Shown piece after piece: positions 13,638 to 60,618 of a stretch of 64,000 nucleotides of DNA. Under the pieces are notes generated by a model. The model was not told the origin of the DNA and did no database searches. It saw nothing but the letters and a program-made list of their open reading frames with translations. Position 1 is the first letter of the stretch, and every line of letters begins with the position of its first letter. A program made the position numbers and the translations under genes. This stretch comes from Candidatus Parcubacteria bacterium. Its GTDB lineage: Bacteria > Patescibacteriota > Minisyncoccia > Minisyncoccales > JAGMDC01. The DNA lies in NCBI GenBank assembly GCA_023131895.1, contig JAGLYZ010000002.1:240474-304473 (forward strand), in the 5' to 3' direction.

Positions 13638-13716
13638 CTAACATTTTAACATATAAACATTTTAACAAAATTAAATCAAAAATGTTTAGATGTTTGAATG
13701 TTTAAATGTTTAAATG
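13638..13716. repeat. Imperfect inverted repeat of AAACATT-type heptads in the pth leader
   Basis: Left arm aacattttaacatataaacattttaac and right arm aaaatgtttagatgtttgaatgtttaaatgtttaaATG. The right arm contains the pth start codon. Confidence 0.7.
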
Positions 13717-14283
13717 ATTCTTATAGTGGGGTTAGGCAATCCTGGAGAAAAATATAAAAGGACGCGGCATAATGTTGGATTTATGGTTTTAGATGAATTT
13801 AAAAAAATTCATAGTTTTTCTGATTGGCAATTAAAAAAGAAATTTAAAGCAGAAATTTCAGAAGGCACTTTAACAGGCAAAAAAATAATTTTAGCAAAAC
13901 CGCAAACTTTTATGAACGAGTCAGGCAAAGCAGTAAAAATCATGCAACAAGAGACAAGAGACAAGAGACAAGAACTATATGTTATTCATGACGACTTGGA
14001 TTTGGGATTAGGAAAAATGAAAATCGTTCAAAACCGCGGCTCTGCCGGACACAAAGGAGTACAGTCAATTATTAATGAGATTGGCAATAAAAACTTTATC
14101 CGTTTTAGAATTGGAATTAAAAATAAAGAACTGGAAATCCAAAATATTGAGGATTTTGTTTTAAAAAAATTTACAAAAGATGAAAAAAAAGTTATAAAAG
14201 AAACTGTGCAAAAAACCTGCAAGGCAATTGAAATGGCAATAAAACAAGGCATTGAAAAAACAATGTCAGAATTTAATAAATAA
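13714..14283 (+). CDS. pth: Peptidyl-tRNA hydrolase
   Basis: 189 aa with GLGNPGEKYKRTRHNVGF N-terminal signature. Confidence 0.92.
   Translation: MILIVGLGNPGEKYKRTRHNVGFMVLDEFKKIHSFSDWQLKKKFKAEISEGTLTGKKIILAKPQTFMNESGKAVKIMQQETRDKRQELYVIHDDLDLGLGKMKIVQNRGSAGHKGVQSIINEIGNKNFIRFRIGIKNKELEIQNIEDFVLKKFTKDEKKVIKETVQKTCKAIEMAIKQGIEKTMSEFNK
13951..13971. repeat. Tandem heptamer (GAGACAA)x3 inside pth
   Basis: A perfect 3-unit tandem repeat, in frame, encoding ETRDKRQ. Confidence 0.85.
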
Positions 14284-14292
14284 ATCTTTTCT

Positions 14293-16338
14293 ATGAACTT
14301 AATTATTGTAGAAAGTCCAACGAAATCAAAAACAATTCAGCAATTTTTAGGGCCTAAATACAAGGTCATTTCTTCATATGGCCATATCCGCGATTTGCCG
14401 AAAAGCGAATTAGGAATTGATATAGAAAACGATTTTAAGCCAAAATACATTATCCCTTTAAAAGCAAGAAAAACTGTTAACTCTTTAAAAAAAGATTCTC
14501 AAAAAGCAGACCTGCTTATTCTGGCTACTGATGAAGACAGAGAAGGAGAAGCAATTGCCTATCATCTAAGCCAGATTTTAAATTCAAATGGTAAAAAACA
14601 TCAGAGGATTGTCTTTCATGAAATAACTAAACAGGCGATTGAACAAGCACTAAAAAATCCTCGTGATATAGATATGGATCTTGTTGACGCCCAGCAAGCA
14701 AGAAGAATTTTAGACCGTTTAGTTGGCTATAAACTCTCCCCTCTTTTATGGAAAAAAGTTGCCAGAGGGCTCTCTGCAGGAAGGGTTCAGTCAGTGACAG
14801 TTCGGCTTGTGGTAGATCGGGAAAGAGAAATTGAAAATTTTAAGCCAGAAGAATATTGGACAATTATCGCCCATCTTGAAAAATACATCGAGAACAGTTC
14901 TCGATGTATTGAAGCGCTTTTGGTTAAAAAAAACGGCAAAGTAATTCCTAAATTAGGGATTAAAGTAAAAAAAGAAGCAGAAAAAATAATTGAAGATTTA
15001 AAAGGAGCAGAATACAAAATTTCAAATATTGAAAAAAAAGAAACTAAAAGAAATCCTTTGCCTCCATTTACTACTTCTACTTTACAGCAAGAATCATGGA
15101 GAAGGCTGCGTTGGCCAGTAAGACATACAATGAGAATTTCCCAGCAGCTTTATGAAAAAGGATTTATCACCTATCATAGAACCGATTCTTTAAATTTATC
15201 TGAAATATCTTTATTTTCCGCTAAAAAATTTATTATTAATAGCTTTGGAAAAGAATATTGGGCTGGATTTTTGAAAAAATACAAAACAAAAACAAAAGCA
15301 GCTCAAGAAGCCCACGAAGCTATAAGGCCTGCTTATCCTGATAAAAAGCCAAACAAAATAAAAGAAAAACTAGATGATAATCAATTTCGGCTCTATGATT
15401 TGATTTGGAGAAGATTTATTGCTTGTCAAATGAGCCAAGCTCGTTTCGATTCCACTACTGTTGACATCTCTGCCAAAAACTATATTTTTAGGGCTTCTGG
15501 ACAAGTATTGAAGTTTGATGGTTTTCTAAAAGTGTACCCTTTGAAATTTGAGGAATCAGAGTTACCTATTTTAGAAAAAAATGAAGTTTTAAAATTAAAA
15601 AAGCTTGTTCCTTCCCAGCACTTTACCCAGCCGTTGCCTCGCTATACTGAAGCTGGTTTAATTAAGGTTTTGGAAGAAAACGGCATTGGCAGGCCGTCAA
15701 CCTATGCGCCAACAATTTCTACTATTCAGGATAGAAATTATGTTCAGAAAAATGAAAATAAAAAGTTTGAACCGACAGAAATAGGAATTATTGTAAATGA
15801 TCTTTTGGTTGAACATTTTCCTAAAATTGTAGATATGAAATTCACAGCAGAAATGGAAAAGGATTTAGATGAAATCTCTGAAGGCAAGAAAAAATTGGTT
15901 CCAGTAATACAAGAATTTTATAAACCTTTTGAAAAAAACTTAAAGGCAAAAGAAAAAGAAATAGATAAAAAAGAAATTGCTGAAGAAAAAACAGATGAAA
16001 ACTGCCCTGAATGCGGCTCGCCATTGATAAAAAAAATGGGCAGATATGGAAAATTTTACGCTTGTTCCGGCTTCCCAAAATGCAGATATACCAAACCAAT
16101 AGAGAAACCAAAGCTTGGAATAAAATGCCCAAAATGCGAAAAAGGAGAAATAGTTGAAAAAAGAACTAGAAAAGGAAAAATTTTTTACGCTTGCAATCGC
16201 TACCCGGAATGCGATTTTGCCTTATGGGACAAACCTATAAATGAAAAATGCCCTGAATGCGGTTCTCTTTTAATTCAAACAAAAAAAGGCAAAATCAAAT
16301 GCTCAAACAAGGAATGCGATTATGTTAGAGATTCTTAA
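14293..16338 (+). CDS. topA: DNA topoisomerase I
   Basis: 681 aa with a Toprim N-terminus (IIVESPTKSKTI), active-site region ITYHRTDS and three C-terminal CxxC...CxxC zinc ribbons. Confidence 0.94.
   Translation: MNLIIVESPTKSKTIQQFLGPKYKVISSYGHIRDLPKSELGIDIENDFKPKYIIPLKARKTVNSLKKDSQKADLLILATDEDREGEAIAYHLSQILNSNGKKHQRIVFHEITKQAIEQALKNPRDIDMDLVDAQQARRILDRLVGYKLSPLLWKKVARGLSAGRVQSVTVRLVVDREREIENFKPEEYWTIIAHLEKYIENSSRCIEALLVKKNGKVIPKLGIKVKKEAEKIIEDLKGAEYKISNIEKKETKRNPLPPFTTSTLQQESWRRLRWPVRHTMRISQQLYEKGFITYHRTDSLNLSEISLFSAKKFIINSFGKEYWAGFLKKYKTKTKAAQEAHEAIRPAYPDKKPNKIKEKLDDNQFRLYDLIWRRFIACQMSQARFDSTTVDISAKNYIFRASGQVLKFDGFLKVYPLKFEESELPILEKNEVLKLKKLVPSQHFTQPLPRYTEAGLIKVLEENGIGRPSTYAPTISTIQDRNYVQKNENKKFEPTEIGIIVNDLLVEHFPKIVDMKFTAEMEKDLDEISEGKKKLVPVIQEFYKPFEKNLKAKEKEIDKKEIAEEKTDENCPECGSPLIKKMGRYGKFYACSGFPKCRYTKPIEKPKLGIKCPKCEKGEIVEKRTRKGKIFYACNRYPECDFALWDKPINEKCPECGSLLIQTKKGKIKCSNKECDYVRDS
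14884..14908. repeat. GAGAAC-N-GTTCTC family palindrome inside topA
   Basis: tacatcgagaac-a-gttctcgatgta, with 12-bp perfect arms. In frame, encoding YIENSSRCI. Confidence 0.85.
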
Positions 16339-16912
16339 GAATCTGGAAATCTTTTTTGAGAATTTCCTTCATGCTTGGATTATAGGTTGCTGCAGCTGGA
16401 TGATAAAGAGAAACAATTTTCACCCTGTTAAATTCTCTCACTTCAAAAACTTTTCCATGAATCTTGCTTATTCCCTCAATTTTATCTTTCAGGCCGTATT
16501 TCTCAAAAATAAAAGCTGTAGAAAAATTACCCAAAGCGCAAATTGCTTTGGGTTTTATGATTTCAATTTGTTTCAAAAGATAAGAAGTGCAGGCCTCTAT
16601 TTCTTCTGTTTTAGGATTGCGATTTTCTGGAGGACGGCATTTCAGGATATTACAAATATAGACATCTGTTCTCTTAATTCCTACAGAGCTTAAAAGCTCG
16701 TCTAAAATTTTACCAGCTGCTCCGCAAAAAGGCCGACCAGTCTTGTCTTCTGACGCACCAGGCGCCTCGCCAATAAACATTATTTCTGCTTCATGGTTTC
16801 CCTGTCCAATAACAGGCAGACCTCGTGTTTTATAAAGTGAGCACTTTTTACATTGGAGAACTTCCTCTTTTATTTCTTTAAGTTCTTTTTCTATTTTTTT
16901 AAGTTCCTCCAT
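16325..16912 (-). CDS. udg: Uracil-DNA glycosylase, family 4
   Basis: 195 aa with CxxC near the N-terminus and GEAPGASED, a family-4 UDG motif. The 3' end overlaps the topA 3' end by 14 nt. Confidence 0.88.
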   Translation of the reverse strand: MEELKKIEKELKEIKEEVLQCKKCSLYKTRGLPVIGQGNHEAEIMFIGEAPGASEDKTGRPFCGAAGKILDELLSSVGIKRTDVYICNILKCRPPENRNPKTEEIEACTSYLLKQIEIIKPKAICALGNFSTAFIFEKYGLKDKIEGISKIHGKVFEVREFNRVKIVSLYHPAAATYNPSMKEILKKDFQILKNL

Positions 16913-18026: not shown

Positions 18027-18714
18027 ATCTTTTAATGGTTTTCAGAATCTTTTTATAATTTTTTTCTTTACAAATAATCCTTCCATTAACTATTACATTA
18101 GTAATATTTGGTTTTAAAAATTTTAAAATTTCTCCAGAGTGAGTAATCAAGAGAATTGAAATATCTTTTGCGAGCAGTTCTTTTTTAATTATCTCTGCTA
18201 CTTCTTTTATTTTCTTTAAATCCAAGCCAGAATCAATCTCATCAAAAATTACTAGCTTTGGTCTTAAAGATAAAATCTGTAATAATTCTGACATTTTTTT
18301 CTCTCCACCGGAAAAATTAACATTAATCTCTCTATCTAATAAGTAGAGCGAGAACTGTTCTCGCTCTATCAGAGCGAGAACAGTTCTCGCTCTAGATCTC
18401 GCGTGGATCTTCTCTAATAATTGAGAAAGTTTTACTCCTTTTACAGCTGGCGGATTTTGCCAAGTTAAAGCAATCCCTAATTTAACTCGTTTTTCAGGAG
18501 AAAGTTTGGTAATATCTTCTTTATTAAAAAAAATCCTGCCTTCTATAATTTTAACATTCGGATTCCCTAAAATCACTTGAGCAAGAGTGGATTTCCCGCT
18601 GGCATTTGGACCAAGAAGAGCTTGTATCTCCCCTTTTTTTATTGTTAAATCAATCCCTTCTAATATCTCCTTACCATCGCCTGAAACTTTTAAATTTTTA
18701 ATTTCTAAAAGCAT
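17980..18714 (-). CDS. sufC: Fe-S cluster assembly ATPase SufC
   Basis: 244 aa ABC ATPase with Walker A GPNASGKST, signature FSGGEKK and Walker B VIFDEIDSGLD. Confidence 0.9.
   Translation of the reverse strand: MLLEIKNLKVSGDGKEILEGIDLTIKKGEIQALLGPNASGKSTLAQVILGNPNVKIIEGRIFFNKEDITKLSPEKRVKLGIALTWQNPPAVKGVKLSQLLEKIHARSRARTVLALIEREQFSLYLLDREINVNFSGGEKKMSELLQILSLRPKLVIFDEIDSGLDLKKIKEVAEIIKKELLAKDISILLITHSGEILKFLKPNITNVIVNGRIICKEKNYKKILKTIKRYGYEKCKKCELLSDK
18345..18410. repeat. Two tandem 23-bp GAGAAC-N-GTTCTC palindromes plus an AGATC..GATCT palindrome inside sufC
   Basis: agagcgagaac-t-gttctcgctct at 18345-18367, agagcgagaac-a-gttctcgctct at 18371-18393, then agatctcgcgtggatct. In frame, encoding SRARTVLALIEREQFSLY. 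Confidence 0.9.
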
Positions 18715-18825: not shown

Positions 18826-19587
18826 TCAACCAGATAGCCAGCCGCCGTCAATCACTACTGTAGAGCCAGTGATGTAAGAGGATTCATCTGAAGCTAAAAA
18901 CAAGACCAAATTAGAAACCTCTTCTGGTTTGCCTACTCGGTGCATTGGGACTCGAGCCAGCATTCCTTCCATTGTTTTAGGGTCCTGCTTGACTGATTCA
19001 ATCATTGGTGTTTCAATCATTCCCGGAGCAATGGCATTAACTCGAATATTATAAGGAGCTAACTCCACTGCTAATGCTTCGGTCATTCCAATAATTCCGC
19101 CTTTTGAAGCACAATAATGCACAATATTAGGGAATCCAATTCCCTGTTGACCCATAGCTACTGAGGAGATATTGATAATTCTTCCGAATTTCTGCTTTGC
19201 CATTTCTTTAACTGCTGCCTGGGCGCAGAGAAAATATCCTTTGAGATTAATATCCAATGTTCGAGCCCAATCCTCCTCTGTTAATTCCAGAAATAGTTTG
19301 AACTGGCAGATTCCAGCGTTATTAACTAAAATATCTATTTTACCAAATTTCTCCACTGTTTTTTTTACCATTTCATCTACTTCCTCTTTTTTAGAAACAT
19401 CACATTTTACAGCCATTGCCTCTCCCTTATTTTTCTTTATCTCTTCCACTACTTTCTCACAGTCCTCCTGAGAAATATCAGAAACAACTACTTTTGCTCC
19501 GGCTTTTGCTAAAATCAAAGCATGAGTTCTACCCATCCCTCTTCTAGCACCAGTAATAATAGCTACTTTGTTTTTTAATTCAAACAT
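18826..19587 (-). CDS. SDR-family oxidoreductase (FabG-like)
   Basis: 253 aa with TGARRGMG cofactor motif and the YCASKGG catalytic YxxxK. Confidence 0.85.
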   Translation of the reverse strand: MFELKNKVAIITGARRGMGRTHALILAKAGAKVVVSDISQEDCEKVVEEIKKNKGEAMAVKCDVSKKEEVDEMVKKTVEKFGKIDILVNNAGICQFKLFLELTEEDWARTLDINLKGYFLCAQAAVKEMAKQKFGRIINISSVAMGQQGIGFPNIVHYCASKGGIIGMTEALAVELAPYNIRVNAIAPGMIETPMIESVKQDPKTMEGMLARVPMHRVGKPEEVSNLVLFLASDESSYITGSTVVIDGGWLSG

Positions 19588-19624
19588 AGATTTTGAGTTT
19601 TTTAATTTTAAACCGACCTTTTTT

Positions 19625-19641
19625 CCGAGAACGGTTCTCGG
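19625..19641. repeat. Intergenic GAGAAC-N-GTTCTC palindrome
   Basis: ccgagaac-g-gttctcgg lying between the ccdA-like stop and the SDR start. Confidence 0.8.
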
Positions 19642-19645
19642 TATT

Positions 19646-20476
19646 TTACTCCATTAACATTAATAATTCTGGATTGACTAATAAAATTATTCCCAAGGCA
19701 ATCATTATTACTCCGCCAATAAGTTTTATTATTTGTGTTTGCTCTTTACTAATCTTTTTACCTTTAAAAAACCAGCCAAATAATAATATCACTGCGCTAA
19801 GAGGTATGATGTAAATAAAGTTGTAAAATAATAAATAGATATAATAGGAAATAGTTCCTTCAAAAACTTTTGCTGACAATACGCCTGTATAAATTATGGG
19901 CCAGCCAGCAGTGCAAGGCAGTTCCACTAAAGAAGAAAATAGAGCAAGGACAACAGAAGCTGTGATTAAGGCAGGAAGAGAGCCGTATTTTATAACCTCT
20001 TTCATTTTTTCTATCTTTTGCATTAAAAGAGGTTTATGCTTTTCTTGAATCATTAGAGTGACACCTTTTCTAAAGGCGAAAAATTCTTTGCAATTAATTG
20101 TTCCGGCAATTAAAGCTACAATAGCAATAATTATCCTTAAAGGATCAATAAATCCTATATAACGAAATACATTTAACCAGGCAGCCATAAACATAAGATA
20201 AACAAAAAAAATAACTGATACAAAAGTTAAACCAACAATAAATATCCTTTTTCTGCTTTCAGATACAGAAATCAGTAAAACAAGCAAAAAAGTTAAAACC
20301 CATAAAGTACAGGGATTAAAACCGTCAATAATAGCAATAATAAAAGTGAACCAAGGTAAAGACAAACTCAAACCGAGCTCTTTAAAGGTCTCTGGAGAGG
20401 CCTGTTTGGCTAAGAAAAAAAGGCCTATCAACCCTATAGCAATTAAAACAGCAATGATAATTTTATCTTTTTCCAT
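19646..20476 (-). CDS. DsbD/CcdA-family transmembrane thiol:disulfide electron transporter (putative)
   Basis: 276 aa polytopic protein with two membrane-embedded cysteines in NPCTLW and LPCTAGW contexts. Confidence 0.55.
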   Translation of the reverse strand: MEKDKIIIAVLIAIGLIGLFFLAKQASPETFKELGLSLSLPWFTFIIAIIDGFNPCTLWVLTFLLVLLISVSESRKRIFIVGLTFVSVIFFVYLMFMAAWLNVFRYIGFIDPLRIIIAIVALIAGTINCKEFFAFRKGVTLMIQEKHKPLLMQKIEKMKEVIKYGSLPALITASVVLALFSSLVELPCTAGWPIIYTGVLSAKVFEGTISYYIYLLFYNFIYIIPLSAVILLFGWFFKGKKISKEQTQIIKLIGGVIMIALGIILLVNPELLMLME

Positions 20477-26235: not shown

Positions 26236-27933
26236 CTATTTTTTCTGCACGAATTTGCAGGGATGTTTAGCAATTATTACTGAAACCTCTTTTTTGTTTA
26301 AAAAATCCTTAATTGCTTTTACAAATTCTTCCTGTTTGACCGGGTCAATTGTTTTTAAATGCTTAACTCCGCAGGCTTTAACAATATTTTCAATACTTAC
26401 TCCATCTGGTTCAGTCGGCGCGCTTGGATGCGGCTGATGGCCAGTCATAGCAGTAGTGGAATTATTCATAATAATTATTAATGGGTTTGATTTATTAAAA
26501 ACCGTGTTAATCAAACCAGTAATGCCGGAATGGAAAAAAGTTGAATCACCAATAAAAGTAATCAGTTTTTGCTCGCTTACCTTCTTAATCCCATGAGCAA
26601 TACCAATTGAAGAACCCATACAGTAAAGATAATCCTGAACATTGTGGGGAGAAAATCCTGCCAACATATAACAGCCAATATCACCGCCGAAAATTACATC
26701 CATACCTTTTGCAGCTTTTTTGACGCCTCCAAAAACCAACCAATAAGGACAGCCATGGCAAAGCTGAGGATGACGACGAGGAATTTTTCTAGCTTCGCCA
26801 GATCTGGCAGAGCCAAACAATTCCAATTTTTTATCAGTAAATTTGGCGATTGCCTGAATAACTATTTCAGGTTTCAACTCGCCGACTTCTGGTACTAAAT
26901 CTTTGCCAATAATCTTTAAATCACAATTTACTTCTTTTGCCATTCTTATTACTTCATTTTCTAAATATGGTTCTAATTCTTCTACTATTAAAACCTTATC
27001 CAAATTTTTAATAAAATTTTTAATTTTTTTCTCTGGCAAGGGATGAAAAAATCCAAGCTTTAAAACCGGCAAAGAAATATTTAATTCCTTTAATGCTTCT
27101 TTCACATAGAGATAAGAAACTCCGGAAGTAATAATTCCGAGCTTCGCAGAGACCCGACCTCCGCCAATTCTGGCGGAGGTCGGGTCTCTTCCGGCTTCTC
27201 TTCTAATTAAATTCAATTTGCTTTTCTCGCTATACTCACGTATTTTTTCAATCTTATCCAAAAGTTCCTTATGCATTTCCATAACTCGAGGCGGCATTGT
27301 TACAAATTTCTTATTGTCCTTTATAAATTTTCCATGGAGAACTGTTCTCAATGTTTTTAATTTGTCTAGTTTGACTGGAGCGCTTTGGTGCGCTACTCTT
27401 GTTGTCTCTCTAATCATTATCGGAATTTCAAATTTTTCAGATAAATCAAAAGCAAATTTAATAAAATCCTTACATTCTTGAGGGATTGACGGTTCAAGAA
27501 CAGGAATATTGGCTAAAGCCGCAAAAGCCCGGCTGTTCTCTTCTGATTGAGCCGAGCTATGGCAGGAAGGATCATCTGCTATTAAAATTACCATTCCTCC
27601 CTTAACTCCAGAATAAACCAATGGAAGTAAAAAATCAGAAGCAACATTTAAACCAAAATTTTTCATTGCCACCAAAGAGCGCAAACCAGAAAAAGAAGCG
27701 CCTCCTGCTGCTTCTATCGCGACTTTTTCATTAACAGAAAACTCAAAATATAAGCTTTTAATTTTGTCTTTAGAGTTTTGAATCTGATAAAAACTATTAC
27801 CGATCTCTGAAGCCGGCGTCCCAGGATAAGTGGAAACAAACTGAACGCCTGCTTCCAAAGCGCCTCTTACTATTGCCTCGTTTCCTAAAAGAATAACTTT
27901 TTTGTTTGGTTTCTCTAAAATATTTTCAAACAT
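26236..27933 (-). CDS. iorA: Indolepyruvate:ferredoxin oxidoreductase alpha subunit (TPP-binding)
   Basis: 565 aa with N-terminal LLGNEAIVRGALEAG...STYPGTPASE and TPP block GDIGCY. No C-terminal 2x[4Fe-4S] CxxCxxCxxxCP motifs are visible. Confidence 0.8.
   Translation of the reverse strand: MFENILEKPNKKVILLGNEAIVRGALEAGVQFVSTYPGTPASEIGNSFYQIQNSKDKIKSLYFEFSVNEKVAIEAAGGASFSGLRSLVAMKNFGLNVASDFLLPLVYSGVKGGMVILIADDPSCHSSAQSEENSRAFAALANIPVLEPSIPQECKDFIKFAFDLSEKFEIPIMIRETTRVAHQSAPVKLDKLKTLRTVLHGKFIKDNKKFVTMPPRVMEMHKELLDKIEKIREYSEKSKLNLIRREAGRDPTSARIGGGRVSAKLGIITSGVSYLYVKEALKELNISLPVLKLGFFHPLPEKKIKNFIKNLDKVLIVEELEPYLENEVIRMAKEVNCDLKIIGKDLVPEVGELKPEIVIQAIAKFTDKKLELFGSARSGEARKIPRRHPQLCHGCPYWLVFGGVKKAAKGMDVIFGGDIGCYMLAGFSPHNVQDYLYCMGSSIGIAHGIKKVSEQKLITFIGDSTFFHSGITGLINTVFNKSNPLIIIMNNSTTAMTGHQPHPSAPTEPDGVSIENIVKACGVKHLKTIDPVKQEEFVKAIKDFLNKKEVSVIIAKHPCKFVQKK
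27149..27188. repeat. Perfect 17-bp-stem GC-rich hairpin inside iorA
   Basis: gagacccgacctccgcc-aattct-ggcggaggtcgggtctc. In frame, encoding GRDPTSARIGGGRVS. Confidence 0.92.
27337..27349. repeat. GAGAAC-N-GTTCTC core inside iorA
   Basis: gagaac-t-gttctc, read in the gene as LRTVLH. Confidence 0.7.
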
Positions 27934-30407: not shown

Positions 30408-32849
30408 TTAACAAACAATATTAATTAATCTTCCTTTAATAAATACCACCTTCTTGATGGGCTTGTCCTCTATCCATTTTTTAACTTTTTCTCTCTCTAA
30501 TGTCAATCTTTTTGCTTCTTCTTCTGAAATGTCTATTTCAACTTCTATTTTGTCGCGCATTTTGCCATTAATCTGGATGATTAAAAAGATTTTTTCTTCT
30601 TTAATTAACTTCGGATTATACTTGGGCCATTTTTCTTTAAAAATAGATTTTTTATAACCTAAATTTTGATAAATCTCTTCTGAAATATGCGGCGCAAAAG
30701 GAGAAAGCAAAATCAACATTTTTTCAATTGTATCTTTGCCAACTTCTTTTTTATCTTCCAAACCCAAATTTACAAACTTCATAAAACCAGCAATGATGGT
30801 ATTGAATTTTGTTGCTTCTAAATCCTCATCTATTTTTTTATTAAGTTGATGAATCGCTCTTATTATTTTGGGACTGCTTTTTTCGTTTTTAGAACACTCC
30901 AAACTCAATTTCCAAACTTTTTCTAAAAACCGATAAACACCTTTCACTCCTTTAGCGCTCCAGACAATTGCCTGACCAAATGGACCCATAAACATTTCAT
31001 AAACACGCAAAGTATCTGCTCCGTATTCTTTAATAATATCATCAGGATTAACTACATTGCCAAATGACTTTGACATTTTTCTTCCATCTTCAGCTAAAAC
31101 TATACCATGAGAAGTCCTTCGAGTATAGGGTTCTGCCTGCGGAGCAATGCCAATATCAAAAAGAAATTTATACCAAAAACGAGAATATAGAAGATGCAAA
31201 GTTGTGTGCTCCATGCCGCCGTTATACCAATCTACTGGCAGCCAATATTTTAATTTTTTGGAATCAGCTAACGATTTATTATTATCAGTATCAGTATAGC
31301 GCATAAAATACCAAGAAGAACCAGCCCAGTTAGGCATAGTGTCGGTTTCTCTTTTAGCTGGTCCCTTGCATTTTGGACACTTGATATCAACCCAATCTTT
31401 AATTTTTGCTAAAGGCGATTCACCAGTGCCTGTTGGCTGATACTTTTCAATATAAGGAAGTTTTACTGGTAAATCTTTCTCCGGCACTGGAATTGCACCG
31501 CATTTTTCACAATGAATAATTGGCATCGGTTCTCCCCAGTAATGCTGTCTGGAAAAAACCCAGTCCCTTAGTCTGTAGTGAACTGTTTTTCTGCCAAAGC
31601 CCTGCTTTTCAGCACATTTTAGCATTTCATCTCTTGCTTTTTTTGAACTCAAACCCGAAAATTGTCCGGAGTTAATCAAAACTCCGTCTTCTACAAAACA
31701 TTCATTTAACTTGGGGAGAACGGTTCTCGTTGATTTCGTCAACGAGAACCGTTCTCGCGAGACTATTACTTCTTTGACTGGCAATTTATATTTTTTAGCA
31801 AAATTAAAATCTCGTTTGTCATGAGCAGGAACTACCATTACTGCCCCTCCTCCATAAGTCGCCACTATATAATCTCCTATCCAAATAGGAATTTTTTCAT
31901 TATTTACTGGATTAATACAATAAGAGCCAGTAAAAACTCCTGTTTTTTCTTTTTTTAATTCTGTTCTTTCAAAATCACTTTTTTTCTTTGATTGTTCAAT
32001 ATAATTAATTACTTTCTCATTGTTGCCATCTGTAATTAGCTTTTCAATCAAGGAATGTTCCGGAGCTAAGACAACAGCTGTCACCCCGAAAATAGTGTCA
32101 GTCCTAGTAGTAAAAACTTTTATTGTGTCTTGAGAATTTTCAATTTTGAAATTAATTTCTATGCCATAACTTCTGCCAATCCAATTTATCTGCTGGGCTT
32201 TAATTTTTTCTAAATAATCAAGCTTTTCTAAATCATCTATCAGCCGGTCAGCATATTTAGTGATTTTTAACATCCATTGTTTTTTTATTTTTTTTTCTAC
32301 TTGAGTATTGCAGCGCTCGCACTTACCGGAAACCACTTCTTCATTGGCTAAGCCAATTTTGCAGGAAGGACACCAGTTAATAGGTATTTCTGCCTGATAA
32401 GCCAAGCCCTTTTCAAAAAGCTGAAGAAAAATCCATTGAGTCCATTTGTAATATTTTGTGTCAGTGGTATTAATTTCCCTATTCCAATCAAAAGAAAGAC
32501 CTAAATTTTTAAATTGTCTTTTAAAATTGGCGATATTTTTTTTAGTTGCTTCTTGAGGATGAATCCCTGTTTTTATAGCATAATTTTCTGCCGGCAAACC
32601 AAAAGCATCCCAGCCAATAGGAAACAAAACATTATATCCTTCCATTCTTTTTTTTCGAGCAACAGCGTCTAAGGCAGTATAAGGTCTTAAATGACCAACA
32701 TGAAGCCCTTCTCCTGAAGGATAAGGAAATTCAATTAAAATATATTTTTTAGGTCTCTTTGAAAAATCTTGAGCTCTATATATTTCTGATTTTTCCCAAG
32801 TTCTTTGCCATTTTGGCTCAATTTTTTGCGGTTCGTATTTTTTCATCAT
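30408..32849 (-). CDS. leuS: Leucine--tRNA ligase
   Basis: 813 aa class I aaRS with HVGH, the KMSKS motif (RKMSKSFGN) and a CP1 editing domain. Confidence 0.95.
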   Translation of the reverse strand: MMKKYEPQKIEPKWQRTWEKSEIYRAQDFSKRPKKYILIEFPYPSGEGLHVGHLRPYTALDAVARKKRMEGYNVLFPIGWDAFGLPAENYAIKTGIHPQEATKKNIANFKRQFKNLGLSFDWNREINTTDTKYYKWTQWIFLQLFEKGLAYQAEIPINWCPSCKIGLANEEVVSGKCERCNTQVEKKIKKQWMLKITKYADRLIDDLEKLDYLEKIKAQQINWIGRSYGIEINFKIENSQDTIKVFTTRTDTIFGVTAVVLAPEHSLIEKLITDGNNEKVINYIEQSKKKSDFERTELKKEKTGVFTGSYCINPVNNEKIPIWIGDYIVATYGGGAVMVVPAHDKRDFNFAKKYKLPVKEVIVSRERFSLTKSTRTVLPKLNECFVEDGVLINSGQFSGLSSKKARDEMLKCAEKQGFGRKTVHYRLRDWVFSRQHYWGEPMPIIHCEKCGAIPVPEKDLPVKLPYIEKYQPTGTGESPLAKIKDWVDIKCPKCKGPAKRETDTMPNWAGSSWYFMRYTDTDNNKSLADSKKLKYWLPVDWYNGGMEHTTLHLLYSRFWYKFLFDIGIAPQAEPYTRRTSHGIVLAEDGRKMSKSFGNVVNPDDIIKEYGADTLRVYEMFMGPFGQAIVWSAKGVKGVYRFLEKVWKLSLECSKNEKSSPKIIRAIHQLNKKIDEDLEATKFNTIIAGFMKFVNLGLEDKKEVGKDTIEKMLILLSPFAPHISEEIYQNLGYKKSIFKEKWPKYNPKLIKEEKIFLIIQINGKMRDKIEVEIDISEEEAKRLTLEREKVKKWIEDKPIKKVVFIKGRLINIVC
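31716..31756. repeat. Nested double GAGAAC-N-GTTCTC palindrome inside leuS
   Basis: gagaacggttctcgttga-tttcg-tcaacgagaaccgttctc. The two 18-nt arms are perfect inverted copies and each arm contains its own palindrome. In frame, encoding SRERFSLTKSTRTVLP. Confidence 0.9.
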
Positions 32850-32929: not shown

Positions 32930-33790
32930 TTAAATTTTAAACAACTTTTTAGCGTTTGTACTGGTGATTTCAGCTATTTTCTCAAGAGGGATATTTTTAA
33001 TTTTAGCAATATGTTCGGCAATGTATTTGATAAAAATGGGTTCATTTCGGCCCGCCTTCGCTAAAGCTTTGGCGGGCAAAGGCGGAGTTAAAAAAGGACA
33101 ATCTGTTTCAATCAAAATTCTATCTAATGGCGTTTTTTTAATTATTTCATCAAGGTCTAATTTAAAAACAATTCCATTAAAACCTAAATAAAATCCCATT
33201 TCTAAAAATTTCTCTGCCTGCTCCCAAGTACCGGTAAAAGAATGGATTACCGAGGTCAGACCTTCTATAGGAGGTCTGACCTCAAGTATTTCTATTAAAT
33301 CGTCGTGAGCCATTCGGCAGTGAAAGATTACTGGCAGATTTAATTCTTCGGCTAATTTTAATTCCTGCTCAAGAAGTGCTTTTTGTTTTTCTTTAAAAAG
33401 CGCAAGCTTTTTCTTTGTTTTCGGCTTATAGTAATAATCCAATCCAATTTCGCCAATAGCCACTACTTTTTTAGATTTTGCTAATTCTTTGTATTTATTG
33501 AAATTAAAATTCTCTTCTAATATATCTTCTAAGTTTTGAGTTTTAAGTTGTGGCTTTGACTTTTGAGTTTTGACTTTTGAGTTTTGTTTAATATTAATAG
33601 GGTGAAGTCCAATCGCCGCATATACTCTTTCATTATAATCCTTTGAAATTTCAACTGCTTTTTTTGAGGTCTCATAATTTGTCCCTACATTTATCATCCA
33701 AATATTATTATCTAAACATCTCTTTATAACTTCATCTCTATCTCTGTCAAAAGCAGCAAAATTAAGATGAGCATGAGTATCTACAAGCAT
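32930..33790 (-). CDS. tatD: TatD-family metal-dependent hydrolase/DNase
   Basis: 286 aa with MLVDTHAHL, the ...ETDCPFLTP... blocks and NEP. About 30 aa longer than usual because of three repeat insertions. Confidence 0.9.
   Translation of the reverse strand: MLVDTHAHLNFAAFDRDRDEVIKRCLDNNIWMINVGTNYETSKKAVEISKDYNERVYAAIGLHPINIKQNSKVKTQKSKPQLKTQNLEDILEENFNFNKYKELAKSKKVVAIGEIGLDYYYKPKTKKKLALFKEKQKALLEQELKLAEELNLPVIFHCRMAHDDLIEILEVRPPIEGLTSVIHSFTGTWEQAEKFLEMGFYLGFNGIVFKLDLDEIIKKTPLDRILIETDCPFLTPPLPAKALAKAGRNEPIFIKYIAEHIAKIKNIPLEKIAEITSTNAKKLFKI
33049..33085. repeat. AAGCTT-centred GC-rich element inside tatD
   Basis: ggcccgccttcgctaaagctttggcgggcaaaggcgg. Its reverse complement closely matches argS 47682-47708. 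Encodes PLPAKALAKAG between the CPFLTP and RNEP motifs. Confidence 0.8.
33252..33283. repeat. Perfect 12-bp-stem hairpin inside tatD
   Basis: gaggtcagacct-tctatagg-aggtctgacctc. In frame, encoding EVRPPIEGLTSV. Confidence 0.9.
33531..33587. repeat. G/T-rich ~57-nt repeat shared with ileS
   Basis: aagttttgagttttaagttgtggctttgacttttgagttttgacttttgagttttg is about 80% identical to 44810-44866. Encodes NSKVKTQKSKPQLKTQNL. Confidence 0.85.
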
Positions 33791-49919: not shown

Positions 49920-50319
49920 GGGAGTGTCAGGTCTCGACAGAAATTTGAGTTAAAATATGCAAGTCGAGTTTTCTCAAATCTCGCAAAACTTTGAGAAAAA
50001 AATAAGTGTCAACTTATTTTCTAAAGCTAAAACGGCTCTCGTTAACGCCATTGGCGAATATCCGAGTGTTCCGACTTTAGCTCCTGCTTACGTTTAATCG
50101 TAAGTCATCTGATTGTTGATTCTCGCTGGGCAAAATCAGGTGTTATATTTAGCGAGATACTCAGTTCTCTTGTCTCAAAGGACTGGGAAAAATATAGAGG
50201 CTAAGAATATTGAAATTTTGTTCATTTTTTATTTAGTATTCCGAAAAAACAAAATGGACTAAATTTGTAGAAATATTTTGGCAAAATTTCTGGACAGGGC
50301 TTCGATGCCCTCACTTCCA
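49920..50319 (+). ncRNA. ssrA: tmRNA (SsrA)
   Basis: Begins 4 nt after the smpB stop. 5' GGGAGTG pairs with 3' CACTTCC, and a tRNA-like T arm (agggcTTCGATgccct) plus discriminator A are present. An internal ORF at 50026-50097 ends ...TLAPAYV-stop. Confidence 0.8.
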
Positions 50320-50330
50320 CATAAAATAAT

Positions 50331-59331: not shown

Positions 59332-60618
59332 CTAAAATAGGGTTTTCTGGTTTGGCGACTTTTTCCGCTCAGCTTTAGAAAAAATTCTGACTTTGCCGAA
59401 AACACCGTCATAACCTGGCTCAACATCAACCCTTCCCTGTCTTACTCTTATTATTCCTTCAGTAATCTCTGGCAAGGTTGCTGACTGTAAATCTGTTTTG
59501 GGAATATCTAATAAAATTTTAAACTCCTGACCAAATTTTTCAATTAGATTTTTATACTCTGCTACTACTCGCTTTGTGCCTGTATTTTGACCCAAACTTT
59601 CAGCAATTATTTCTTCTAAGAGAACCATGCTTTTAAAAGGAACTACTCCTTCTGGTTTAAATCCCTCTGGCTTATCTGCTAACTCTTCTACTCGGTTTAA
59701 AACTCCAATAGTTAATGGCTTGCCGCAATTAGGGCATATATTGTTATATTTTTTTGATTCTAAAGGCGATAAGCTAATTTCGCAAGTTCTATGTCCGTCA
59801 TAATGGTATTTTCCTTCTTCAGGGTAAAACTCAATAGTGTAAAGAAACTTTTTGGGATTTTTTGATTTCATTGCTTCCATAATAGAAAAATAATCTAATT
59901 CTGTATCAAAAACATTTGCTTCCCTGCCAAGTTTAGGGCCACTGTGCGCGTCACTGTTTGAAATTATAGCAACCTTTCGACCATCAGGTATTCGCCAGAG
60001 CATTGCCGGGTCCGCGCTTAAACCGCTCTCTATTGCATAAATATACTTTGTGTAATCTTCAAAACATTCTTCCAAAGAATCAAAGCCTGACTTTGAACCA
60101 AATATACCAAACCATGGAGTAAAACAATGTGCTGGAACAATTAAACAATCTTGGGAAGTATTTAAAACGATTTTTGCTAATTCTTTTACATCCAAACCTA
60201 AAATTGGCCTGCCATCAGATTTTAAGTTTCCAATCCCGCTCAATTGAGTATTGATTTTTTCAACAACTTCAAAAGAAGGCGCGAAAACTATGATATGAAT
60301 TTTACGAACTCTTCCATTTTTAGAATAAATACAGCTAATTTCTGAAGTTAGAATAAACCTTGTCTCTTTTTCGCGTAGTTTCGCGTTTAGTCCTGCGTGG
60401 TTTCGCGAACCAGGGCTTTTTATTCTAAAAAGCCCTGGTTCTGCTGGTTCCAATTTCTCTTTTATATTTTGAAACCATTCTGGATGAGTAAAATCACCTG
60501 TTCCTAAAACTTTAATCCCTTTGATCTTTGCCCATTTATCTAAATTTTCTAAATCCATTTGCGGGCTGGTCGCTCTTGAATATTTAGAATGAAGATGAAA
60601 GTCAGCTATAAATTTCAT
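59332..60618 (-). CDS. endoQ: Endonuclease Q (EndoQ) family, PHP domain plus zinc finger
   Basis: 428 aa with ADFHLHSKYSRATS, GTGDFTHPEW, NSDAHS and CPNCGKPLTIGVLNRVEELAD. It is collinear with archaeal EndoQ as I recall it. Confidence 0.75.
   Translation of the reverse strand: MKFIADFHLHSKYSRATSPQMDLENLDKWAKIKGIKVLGTGDFTHPEWFQNIKEKLEPAEPGLFRIKSPGSRNHAGLNAKLREKETRFILTSEISCIYSKNGRVRKIHIIVFAPSFEVVEKINTQLSGIGNLKSDGRPILGLDVKELAKIVLNTSQDCLIVPAHCFTPWFGIFGSKSGFDSLEECFEDYTKYIYAIESGLSADPAMLWRIPDGRKVAIISNSDAHSGPKLGREANVFDTELDYFSIMEAMKSKNPKKFLYTIEFYPEEGKYHYDGHRTCEISLSPLESKKYNNICPNCGKPLTIGVLNRVEELADKPEGFKPEGVVPFKSMVLLEEIIAESLGQNTGTKRVVAEYKNLIEKFGQEFKILLDIPKTDLQSATLPEITEGIIRVRQGRVDVEPGYDGVFGKVRIFSKAERKKSPNQKTLF
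60368..60441. repeat. TTTCGCG direct repeats (x3) plus perfect 16-bp-stem hairpin inside endoQ
   Basis: gaaccagggcttttta-ttc-taaaaagccctggttc at 60407-60441, preceded by tttcgcg at 60369, 60379 and 60401. In frame, encoding PGLFRIKSPGSRNHAGLNAKLRE. Confidence 0.85.

Follow-up and report, generated by a model that had tools for sequence, protein, structure and literature searches.

The 64,000-nucleotide stretch of Candidatus Parcubacteria bacterium DNA analysed here (contig JAGLYZ010000002.1, positions 240,474 to 304,473; hereafter the window) carries a family of short palindromes with the core GAGAAC-N-GTTCTC, most of them within protein-coding genes. We conclude that these are very probably repetitive extragenic palindromic (REP) elements, and that their tandem pairs are REPIN-type doublets (REP doublets forming hairpins), of a system belonging to bacteria of the Candidate Phyla Radiation (CPR) that is served by a Y1 HUH transposase resembling the REP-associated tyrosine transposases (RAYTs).

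Seven exact copies of the core (GAGAACNGTTCTC) are present, at 14890, 18350, 18376, 19627, 27337, 31716 and 31744, where an earlier sequence-only reading of the window had placed them. Their number is well above compositional expectation, which is zero; none was found in 100 dinucleotide-preserving shuffles of the window. Allowing up to two mismatches adds one further match that is chance-like, and among the 6-N-6 palindrome families checked this is the only one that is enriched in the window. The palindromes of the single copies are 13-29 bp in length, and the elements including doublets are 13-51 bp. Six of the seven cores lie inside uninterrupted open reading frames (ORFs), namely topA (681 aa), sufC (244 aa, two copies), an iorA-like gene (565 aa) and leuS (813 aa, two copies), and one is intergenic. 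All three coding phases are occupied among the intragenic copies; this location in intact conserved genes, in every frame, had also been read correctly from the sequence. The ABC motifs of SufC are all intact despite the palindromes in its gene. Inspection of the 13-mer core shows that all six of its frames are free of stop codons, and it is preceded by C or G in the window copies. The seven cores are clustered, all lying inside 17 kb of the ~84 kb examined (the window plus ~20 kb of flank) and 14-31 kb from parB, which with parA stands at the start of the window (parB 14-907, parA 920-1699). No core copy is present in the other ~67 kb, i.e. the rest of the window and the 20 kb of flank (L197 and L198).

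In related genomes the palindromes are found beside a transposase gene. At two loci (L070 and L090) they surround an ORF of ~205-234 aa with the motifs MPNH[IV]HLL and YIHTN, and homologues at four others (L004, L061, L105 and L052) were found by tblastn. All six loci had been found through the palindrome alone, and in each the Y1_Tnp gene is adjacent to palindromes or flanked by them. The six proteins pass the Pfam model PF01797 (Y1_Tnp, IS200-like) at 33-44 bits, the cut-off being 23, and the best NCBIfam model is that of the REP-associated tyrosine transposase (NF047646, 40-45.5 bits). The HUH motif (PNHIH) and the tyrosine of YIHxN are invariant in our transposase alignments (A3 and A4). 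A transposase gene flanked by its cognate REPs has been termed a REPtron, and defines the REP-RAYT systems (PMC3733652, PMC3116915); this is the arrangement seen at the loci of the related CPR genomes. The gene is present at 6 of ~95 CPR palindrome loci and at 1 of ~21 in the metagenome-assembled genome (MAG) VGKE01, counts that refer to loci and not to complete genomes.

The association is also seen starting from the protein. A protein search returned 3,185 transposase homologues at E ≤ 1e-5, mostly from short contigs. One of these (P0310, locus L116), picked by protein similarity alone, is preceded by CAGAGAACAGTTCTCTG, 24 nt ahead of the start codon, and followed by ATCAGAGAACAGTTCTCTGAT, 6 nt beyond the stop, with no further copy of the core elsewhere in the 20.7 kb of this locus. 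The same core directly flanks the gene in L116, L070, L090 and L105. In a set of 80 homologous transposase loci fetched from metagenomes, an exact core is located ≤150 nt from the gene or within it in 14, and the remaining 240 kb of flank around the 80 homologues contains two core copies. GC-rich palindromes are present on both flanks of 58 of the 80, and in 46 the apical 6-mer and the loop size are the same on both sides. Most of the loci without the exact core are flanked by GC-rich palindromes of other classes, including GGAGGAC-N-GTCCTCC, GAGGTC-N-GACCTC, GAGG-N5-CCTC and CGAGAA-N3-TTCTCG. The class of core follows the relatedness of the transposase, the nearest protein neighbour sharing it in 20 of 62 cases where 3.8 are expected. 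Two further palindromes of the window, in tatD and in the iorA-like gene (27148-27189), fit core classes from this transposase-flanking set.

We note that the RAYT-like genes usually hold their own REP core in frame, within a variable, indel-rich segment (residues ~60-70 in alignments A3 and A4). These internal REPs are found at L070 2554, at L090 7873 and at about +190 nt in 12 of the 80 metagenome loci, and read KARGEQFSAD or NRSRTVLD.

The distribution of the paired core was examined by scanning 185,579 species-representative genomes for two cores ≤30 nt apart. These were found at 109 loci, about 95 of them from CPR MAGs, including Nealsonbacteria, Portnoybacteria, Minisyncoccales, Paceibacterota and MAGs labelled Saccharibacteria. 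Some of the genomes contribute 10-20 paired-core loci each. Among 74 distinct CPR doublets 57 are inverted (77%) and 14 are direct, and 52 form perfect long hairpins. At the low-GC loci 108 of 221 core copies lie within stop-free stretches of ≥120 codons, using the three phases equally, and the base before the core across the CPR loci is C, G or A. The doublet forms part of a longer repeat in the Nealsonbacteria MAG VGKE01, a non-coding unit of ~260 bp beginning TGTAAGAATTCACCGCG... with a second long hairpin in it, of which there are at least 20 nearly identical copies (L075 1897-2160; L009, L018, L054, L055 and ~15 other contigs). Many contigs of this MAG end at the doublet-bearing repeat, which looks like a miniature inverted-repeat transposable element (MITE) that fragments the assembly.

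The elements of the window are as follows, folding energies being those of the single-stranded DNA.

14882-14910, topA REP singlet: a 29-bp perfect palindrome with 14-bp arms, AATACATC-GAGAAC-A-GTTCTC-GATGTATT, encoding KYIENSSRCI; hairpin -11.9 kcal/mol, z -7.1.

18344-18394, sufC REPIN-like doublet: REPs at 18344-18368 and 18371-18393, with 12- and 11-bp arms when taken singly and complementary centre bases (T vs A), together forming one hairpin with 24-bp arms, -29.6 kcal/mol, z -10.2; encodes RARTVLALIEREQFSLY; its left end abuts GTAG, the sole such case in the window.

19625-19641, intergenic REP singlet: CCGAGAACGGTTCTCGG, with 8-bp arms, 5 nt past the stop of the ORF at 19646-20476 and 38 nt ahead of the start of the SDR gene at 18826-19587.

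27148-27189, GC-rich perfect palindrome in the iorA-like gene: 42 bp with 19-bp arms, encoding part of REAGRDPTSARIGGGRVSA; -26.8 kcal/mol, z -9.9.

27337-27349, core-only REP in the iorA-like gene: encodes LRTVL; a weak hairpin of -3.7 kcal/mol, z -2.0.

31716-31756, leuS REPIN-like doublet: a hairpin with 18-bp arms and the loop TTTCG, -23.2 kcal/mol, z -8.2; taken singly, the REP at 31716 is core only and the second has one additional base per arm (31743-31757), with complementary centres (G vs C); encodes RERFSLTKSTRTVL.

33252-33283, tatD doublet of a second REP family: GAGGTC-A-GACCT ... AGGTC-T-GACCTC.

The centre bases of the sufC and leuS pairs are complementary, so that each pair is an inverted repeat and folds as one long hairpin. 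The sufC doublet lies after the Q-loop and before the ABC signature, in a hypervariable segment, in keeping with its earlier placement near the signature. The predicted peptides spanning elements include ...SRARTVLALIEREQFSLY... and ...SRERFSLTKSTRTVLPK... The GAGGTC-N-GACCTC core of the tatD type also flanks RAYT-like genes in at least seven other loci. By resemblance only, the palindrome at 27148-27189 may be placed with the GAGG-tcggg/cccga-CCTC class of RAYT-flanking palindromes.

Palindromic repeats break assemblies, and the contigs of VGKE01 that end at a doublet illustrate this, so it could be asked whether the palindromes are themselves artefacts of assembly or amplification, created by chimeric inverted joins. 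However, an independent scaffold in ENA (L115), from another sample record, carries sufC and intergenic copies identical to those of the window, and these are therefore not an assembly artefact. Moreover the leuS doublet is kept in the genome of another species, the reading frames are intact, and the core is present in hundreds of MAGs from different studies. The probability of an artefact is thus vanishingly small.

The hairpins might instead be elements selected at the level of RNA, serving as RNase sites, as terminators or to stabilise mRNA. A-rich and T-rich flanks give several intergenic CPR copies the look of bidirectional terminators (L070 2304 and 3076; L090 6532 and 7318), orthologous doublets keep their base pairing though the stem sequence changes, and REPs elsewhere have been reported as RNA elements (PMC3733652). 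Against this, strong terminators would do harm within topA, sufC and leuS, no T-runs accompany the window copies on the coding strand, and a scan of the window with Rfam found no family at the palindrome sites. The flanking of transposase genes would be left unexplained, and any RNA roles could be secondary co-option. We consider it highly unlikely that selection in RNA explains the family.

The only Rfam matches in the window are a tmRNA (128 bits) and one tRNA, at 49920-50322 and 1766-1849. For the intergenic copy taken by itself a reading as a terminator was rejected, since it is an A-run, not a T-run, that comes after the hairpin when read on the gene strand. A literature search with the sequence of the palindrome returned two unrelated chance matches only.

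Outside the CPR the paired core is found as tandem pairs in the promoter regions of unrelated phyla, comprising Actinobacteria (L006, L012, L028, L047, L053, L074, L091, L092 and L104), Betaproteobacteria (L048, L068 and L072) and Bacteroidota (L026, L058, L081, L103 and L042). The actinobacterial pairs adjoin rpmE2/rpsN paralogues (L31/S14) and a COG0523 GTPase, and those of Rhodocyclaceae are upstream of feoAB and exbB-like genes. We take the former to be a typical Zur regulon and the latter a typical Fur regulon. The non-CPR pairs thus look like Zur- and Fur-type 7-1-7 operators that share the 13-mer by convergence.

This raises the question of whether the CPR palindromes are also binding sites of a dimeric protein, either of the Fur family (7-1-7) or one that organises the chromosome, placed inside genes owing to the scarcity of non-coding DNA. 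As well as the shared 13-mer at Zur- and Fur-type promoters, the intergenic copy upstream of the SDR-sufC-sufBD genes and the clustering of the copies near parAB are in accord with such a role. But six of the seven copies are deep in coding sequence, and their outer arms are symmetric while differing between copies, indicative of hairpin formation rather than of base readout by a protein. Furthermore the core flanks Y1 transposase genes and its type shifts with the transposase lineage, and the base that precedes it in CPR (C, G or A) is not the T of the 7-1-7 boxes of other phyla. Operators of this kind are very improbable here, and the Fur/Zur reading was dropped for CPR because the copies lie in coding sequence, have variable stems and are associated with the transposase.

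The copies of the window had at first been called insertions, and comparison with orthologues bears this out for some of them. The syntenic Nealsonbacteria locus L001, whose SufC is 77% identical to that of the window, spans the topA, sufC, intergenic and iorA sites without a single copy of the core. Length changes were read locus by locus from codon-level alignments. The leuS doublet adds about 13 aa relative to the LeuS of close Parcubacteria, which reads SGGDISK there, and 7 relative to that of T. thermophilus. The palindrome at 27148-27189 is a 13-codon insertion relative to L001. The sufC block is 12 codons longer than in the relative L003 but only two longer than in L001; across 27 relatives this segment comprises 6-20 unrelated residues, and in the window it is shorter than the same segment of the E. 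coli and T. thermophilus SufC. The topA site is a variable loop, longer by 3/4 aa than in the solved TopA structures in the PDB. In these alignments net insertion is clear only for the leuS doublet and for 27148-27189, each of ~39 nt, so that the term insertion is apt for these and for sufC against L003, and not for topA, the iorA core or sufC against L001.

The expectation that the elements would be lineage specific was likewise upheld in part. Four of the five window loci are without the palindrome in L001, but the leuS doublet is kept at the orthologous site in the same Nealsonbacteria genome (MAG JAUWMZ01, L035 7947-7987). At the level of the aligned sequences the window copies demonstrate both turnover and vertical persistence, with insertion holding for some and not for all. 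Doublets in enolase are orthologous in three MAGs; the stem base beside the core has changed from A-T to G-C in both REPs, with pairing kept. This is compatible with homogenisation by template switching, or with a swap for another subfamily.

The LeuS fragment search gave for the most part truncated gene calls. Two of these that end exactly at the site of the doublet (P0184 and P0178) were set aside as uninformative; their source is a long-read assembly whose leuS is broken into several pieces, likely by frameshift errors. In that assembly (ERZ25039515) the leuS of related Parcubacteria is in three or four fragments (L113 4001-6363; L114 3256-5674), one break falling exactly at the variable linker that holds the doublet in the window; this is probably due to homopolymer or frameshift errors.

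Some further differences between the window and L001 were observed. The SDR (FabG-like) gene lies between a 276-aa ORF and sufC in the window (18826-19641) and is missing from L001 (9986-10001), and the intergenic REP stands exactly at the upstream junction of this gene. In L001 dprA is present between topA and pth (14278-15811), and it is not in the window (13714-14293). L001 has an intragenic palindrome of its own in pth, at 15530-15560 (TAAATTGACGAGAA-ATG-TTCTCGTCAATTTA), whose core GACGAGAA-N3-TTCTCGTC also flanks RAYT-like genes in L160, L154 and L163. There is a 32-bp perfect palindrome in the intergenic region from UDG to topA (L001 12217-12248). The UDG gene itself contains the palindrome ACCCAAAGC-N7-GCTTTGGGT, with 9-bp arms, both in the window (16529-16553) and in L001 (11953-11977), with one loop base differing; its conservation may reflect either coding constraint or a hairpin that is maintained as such.

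The copies that show little net insertion bring in another possibility, that replication template switching, or inverted duplication, at quasi-palindromes forms the palindromes where they stand, with no mobile element involved and the core a mutational hot spot. One palindrome of the window, whose core is not of the REP type, is a clear example of such a process. This is a 35-bp perfect palindrome at 60407-60441, within the ORF at 59332-60618. Its left arm is formed by the conserved host codons EPGLF, which are the same in the relative L051, and its right arm replaces the ancestral codons by the inverted complement of the left without change of length there; a 13-residue insertion follows the palindrome. 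From the alignment this looks like quasi-palindrome correction through template switching. It shows that a palindrome can be made from host sequence, and the topA, tatD and iorA core copies, with no or almost no net insertion, and the locus-specific outer arms of the REPs could be understood in the same way. Yet an identical 13-nt core at seven sites in the window and hundreds of sites in CPR cannot have arisen independently, and isolated half-sites are not enriched in the window (11 and 12 observed vs 7.9 and 14.9 expected). The leuS doublet and 27148-27189 are clean ~39-nt insertions, and the core is tightly tied to the transposase gene. An origin in place is thus distinctly unlikely, and we regard template switching as a secondary process that contributes to the family but did not originate it.

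A number of observations weigh against the assignment of the palindromes to a RAYT-like system. The transposase does not reach the equivalog cut-off of NF047646 (80 bits), and is hence a distant relative of the curated RAYTs. A search of its sequence against those of the PDB with phmmer gave no match, and the one hit of a profile search was ISDra2 TnpA, matched around the HUH motif with a marginal E of 0.09. The structure predicted from a 32-sequence alignment has a pLDDT (predicted local distance difference test) of 41. The window and the ~20 kb of flank (10 kb at each end) yielded no RAYT-like gene, so that a cognate enzyme in this genome is putative. The GTAG tag of known REPs is found in 26 of 381 distinct core flanks, ranking 25th among tetramers, and CGTC in 2 of 381. 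The topA copy produces no local change in length relative to L001, which has no palindrome there; the iorA core adds one codon relative to L001, within a variable stretch; and the tatD doublet adds one residue relative to the TatD of T. maritima. Lastly, the outer stems differ among the copies of one genome, which is not what simple copy-and-paste of a master element predicts.

We propose that the RAYT-like enzyme recognises the conserved apical stem, acting as a transposase or nuclease on single-stranded DNA. Hairpin recognition on single-stranded DNA, with cutting and rejoining, is the established biochemistry of the IS200/IS605 insertion sequences (ISs) and of the RAYTs. By analogy, the transposase would bind the hairpin where DNA is single stranded, for example at replication forks, and would then cut and rejoin the DNA so that copies are spread or are kept. 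Copies that maintain the reading frame in permissive surface loops of essential proteins would survive selection, and are presumably translated; in-frame copies would persist because CPR genomes have next to no intergenic space and none of the six frames of the core holds a stop codon. As a secondary step, the stems are probably lengthened into the adjacent codons, with no change in length, when replication switches template on the hairpin (quasi-palindrome correction). Such extension would explain both the locus-specific outer arms and the copies that lack net insertion.

REP-RAYT systems and REPINs have been described in detail (PMC3116915, PMC3337134), and comparison with those of E. coli (TnpA-REP) and P. 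fluorescens SBW25 (GI-GIII; Bertels & Rainey 2011, PMC3116915) reveals many common features. These are short multi-copy palindromes, an inverted doublet folding into a single long hairpin as the predominant unit, a Y1 HUH gene flanked by cognate repeats, transposase lineages that each have their own repeat families, several families in one genome, and vertical inheritance at orthologous loci. There are also differences. The described REPINs are extragenic, whereas six of the seven copies in the window and 108 of the 221 in CPR are intragenic. Only the 13-15-bp apical core is conserved here, the outer stem being specific to the locus. The doublets measure 27-55 bp, compared with REP spacings of 71 or 110 bp in SBW25. 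The CPR transposase is of ~234 aa, falls below the equivalog cut-off and usually has an internal in-frame REP, and the host is a member of the CPR rather than the Proteobacteria.

The IS200/IS605 elements (IS608 and ISDra2) similarly have a Y1_Tnp-superfamily enzyme, end hairpins recognised on single-stranded DNA and no target duplication. Their hairpins are however imperfect and asymmetric, left being unlike right, and it is the whole IS that is multi-copy, whereas here the palindromes are perfect and self-symmetric and outnumber the gene (~95 loci vs 6 with the gene). The boxes of the Fur family (Fur, Zur and PerR) have the identical 6/7-N-6/7 architecture and the same 13-mer in tandem, but they are located in promoters, have T before the core (T-N13-A), number few per genome and lack extended variable stems.

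REPs within genes, both single and in dimers that encode 20-30 residues, are known in Opitutus terrae, Thauera, Thioalkalivibrio and Rickettsia (PMC3733652), and the Rickettsia palindromic elements (RPEs) RPE-4 and RPE-6 have been classed as CGTC (intragenic) REPs (Di Nocera et al. 2013, PMC3733652). The GTAG and CGTC REPs and the RPEs resemble the CPR family in being palindromes, single or dimeric, placed in frame in housekeeping genes of reduced genomes and encoding ~10-30 residues in regions that are presumably permissive. In-frame insertion of the RPE type, absent from orthologues, is seen for leuS, for 27148-27189 and for sufC relative to L003, but not for topA or the iorA core. The GTAG and CGTC REPs have a conserved unpaired tag at the end of the stem-loop, which is not typical here. 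No dedicated transposase is known for the CGTC REPs and RPEs, while the CPR repeats are linked to one. RPE-1, at about 100-150 bp with conserved sequence, is far larger than the CPR elements of 13-51 bp and apparently unrelated to them, and these do not have the CGTC tag of RPE-4 and RPE-6. The intragenic copies are a minority in the described REP and RPE species, compared with about half or more here. The likening of these palindromes to the RPEs, as selfish repeats in coding genes, is thus supported, RPE-4 and RPE-6 being themselves intragenic REPs. The alternative offered with it, targets of a nuclease or DNA-binding protein, converges on the same answer, that of a REP core whose copies in related CPR genomes flank a RAYT-like transposase gene.

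The literature searched contained no paper on REP, RAYT or REPIN in CPR or Patescibacteria, a KEGG annotation in an archaeon being the nearest exception. Within the literature searched, the suggestion in the sequence-only reading that such elements had not been described for this kind of genome therefore holds for the host, while intragenic REPs as such are known. The novelty lies in the host, in how large and diverse the family is there, and in the fact that copies placed in frame within genes predominate. Earlier work on REP-RAYT systems has mostly concerned Proteobacteria.

A bolder suggestion, which we think unlikely, is that the partnership of RAYT and REPIN has moved into coding DNA in CPR to become an engine for the remodelling of loops; in a stronger version the copies near parAB would also have a role for the host on single-stranded DNA in replication. 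If remodelling were to occur in this way, the landing of a REP followed by template-switch extension would rewrite 5-17 codons at once in surface loops, sometimes without change of length, and the repeats would be a regular source of lineage-specific peptides in otherwise conserved proteins.

The genomes of CPR/Patescibacteria are tiny and gene-dense, and are usually called poor in mobile DNA. Our analysis reveals a large family of Y1 transposases (~3,200 homologues) with cognate palindrome families across several CPR orders. In practical terms the repeats are usable as lineage markers. They also break assemblies, as in the VGKE01 contigs, they create odd insertions in the alignments of marker proteins used for CPR phylogeny, and they may be mistaken for regulator sites, the 13-mer being a Fur/Zur-type box in other phyla. 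With half or more of the copies in frame in essential genes such as leuS, topA, sufC and enolase, the family provides a natural experiment on the tolerance of essential proteins for foreign peptides.

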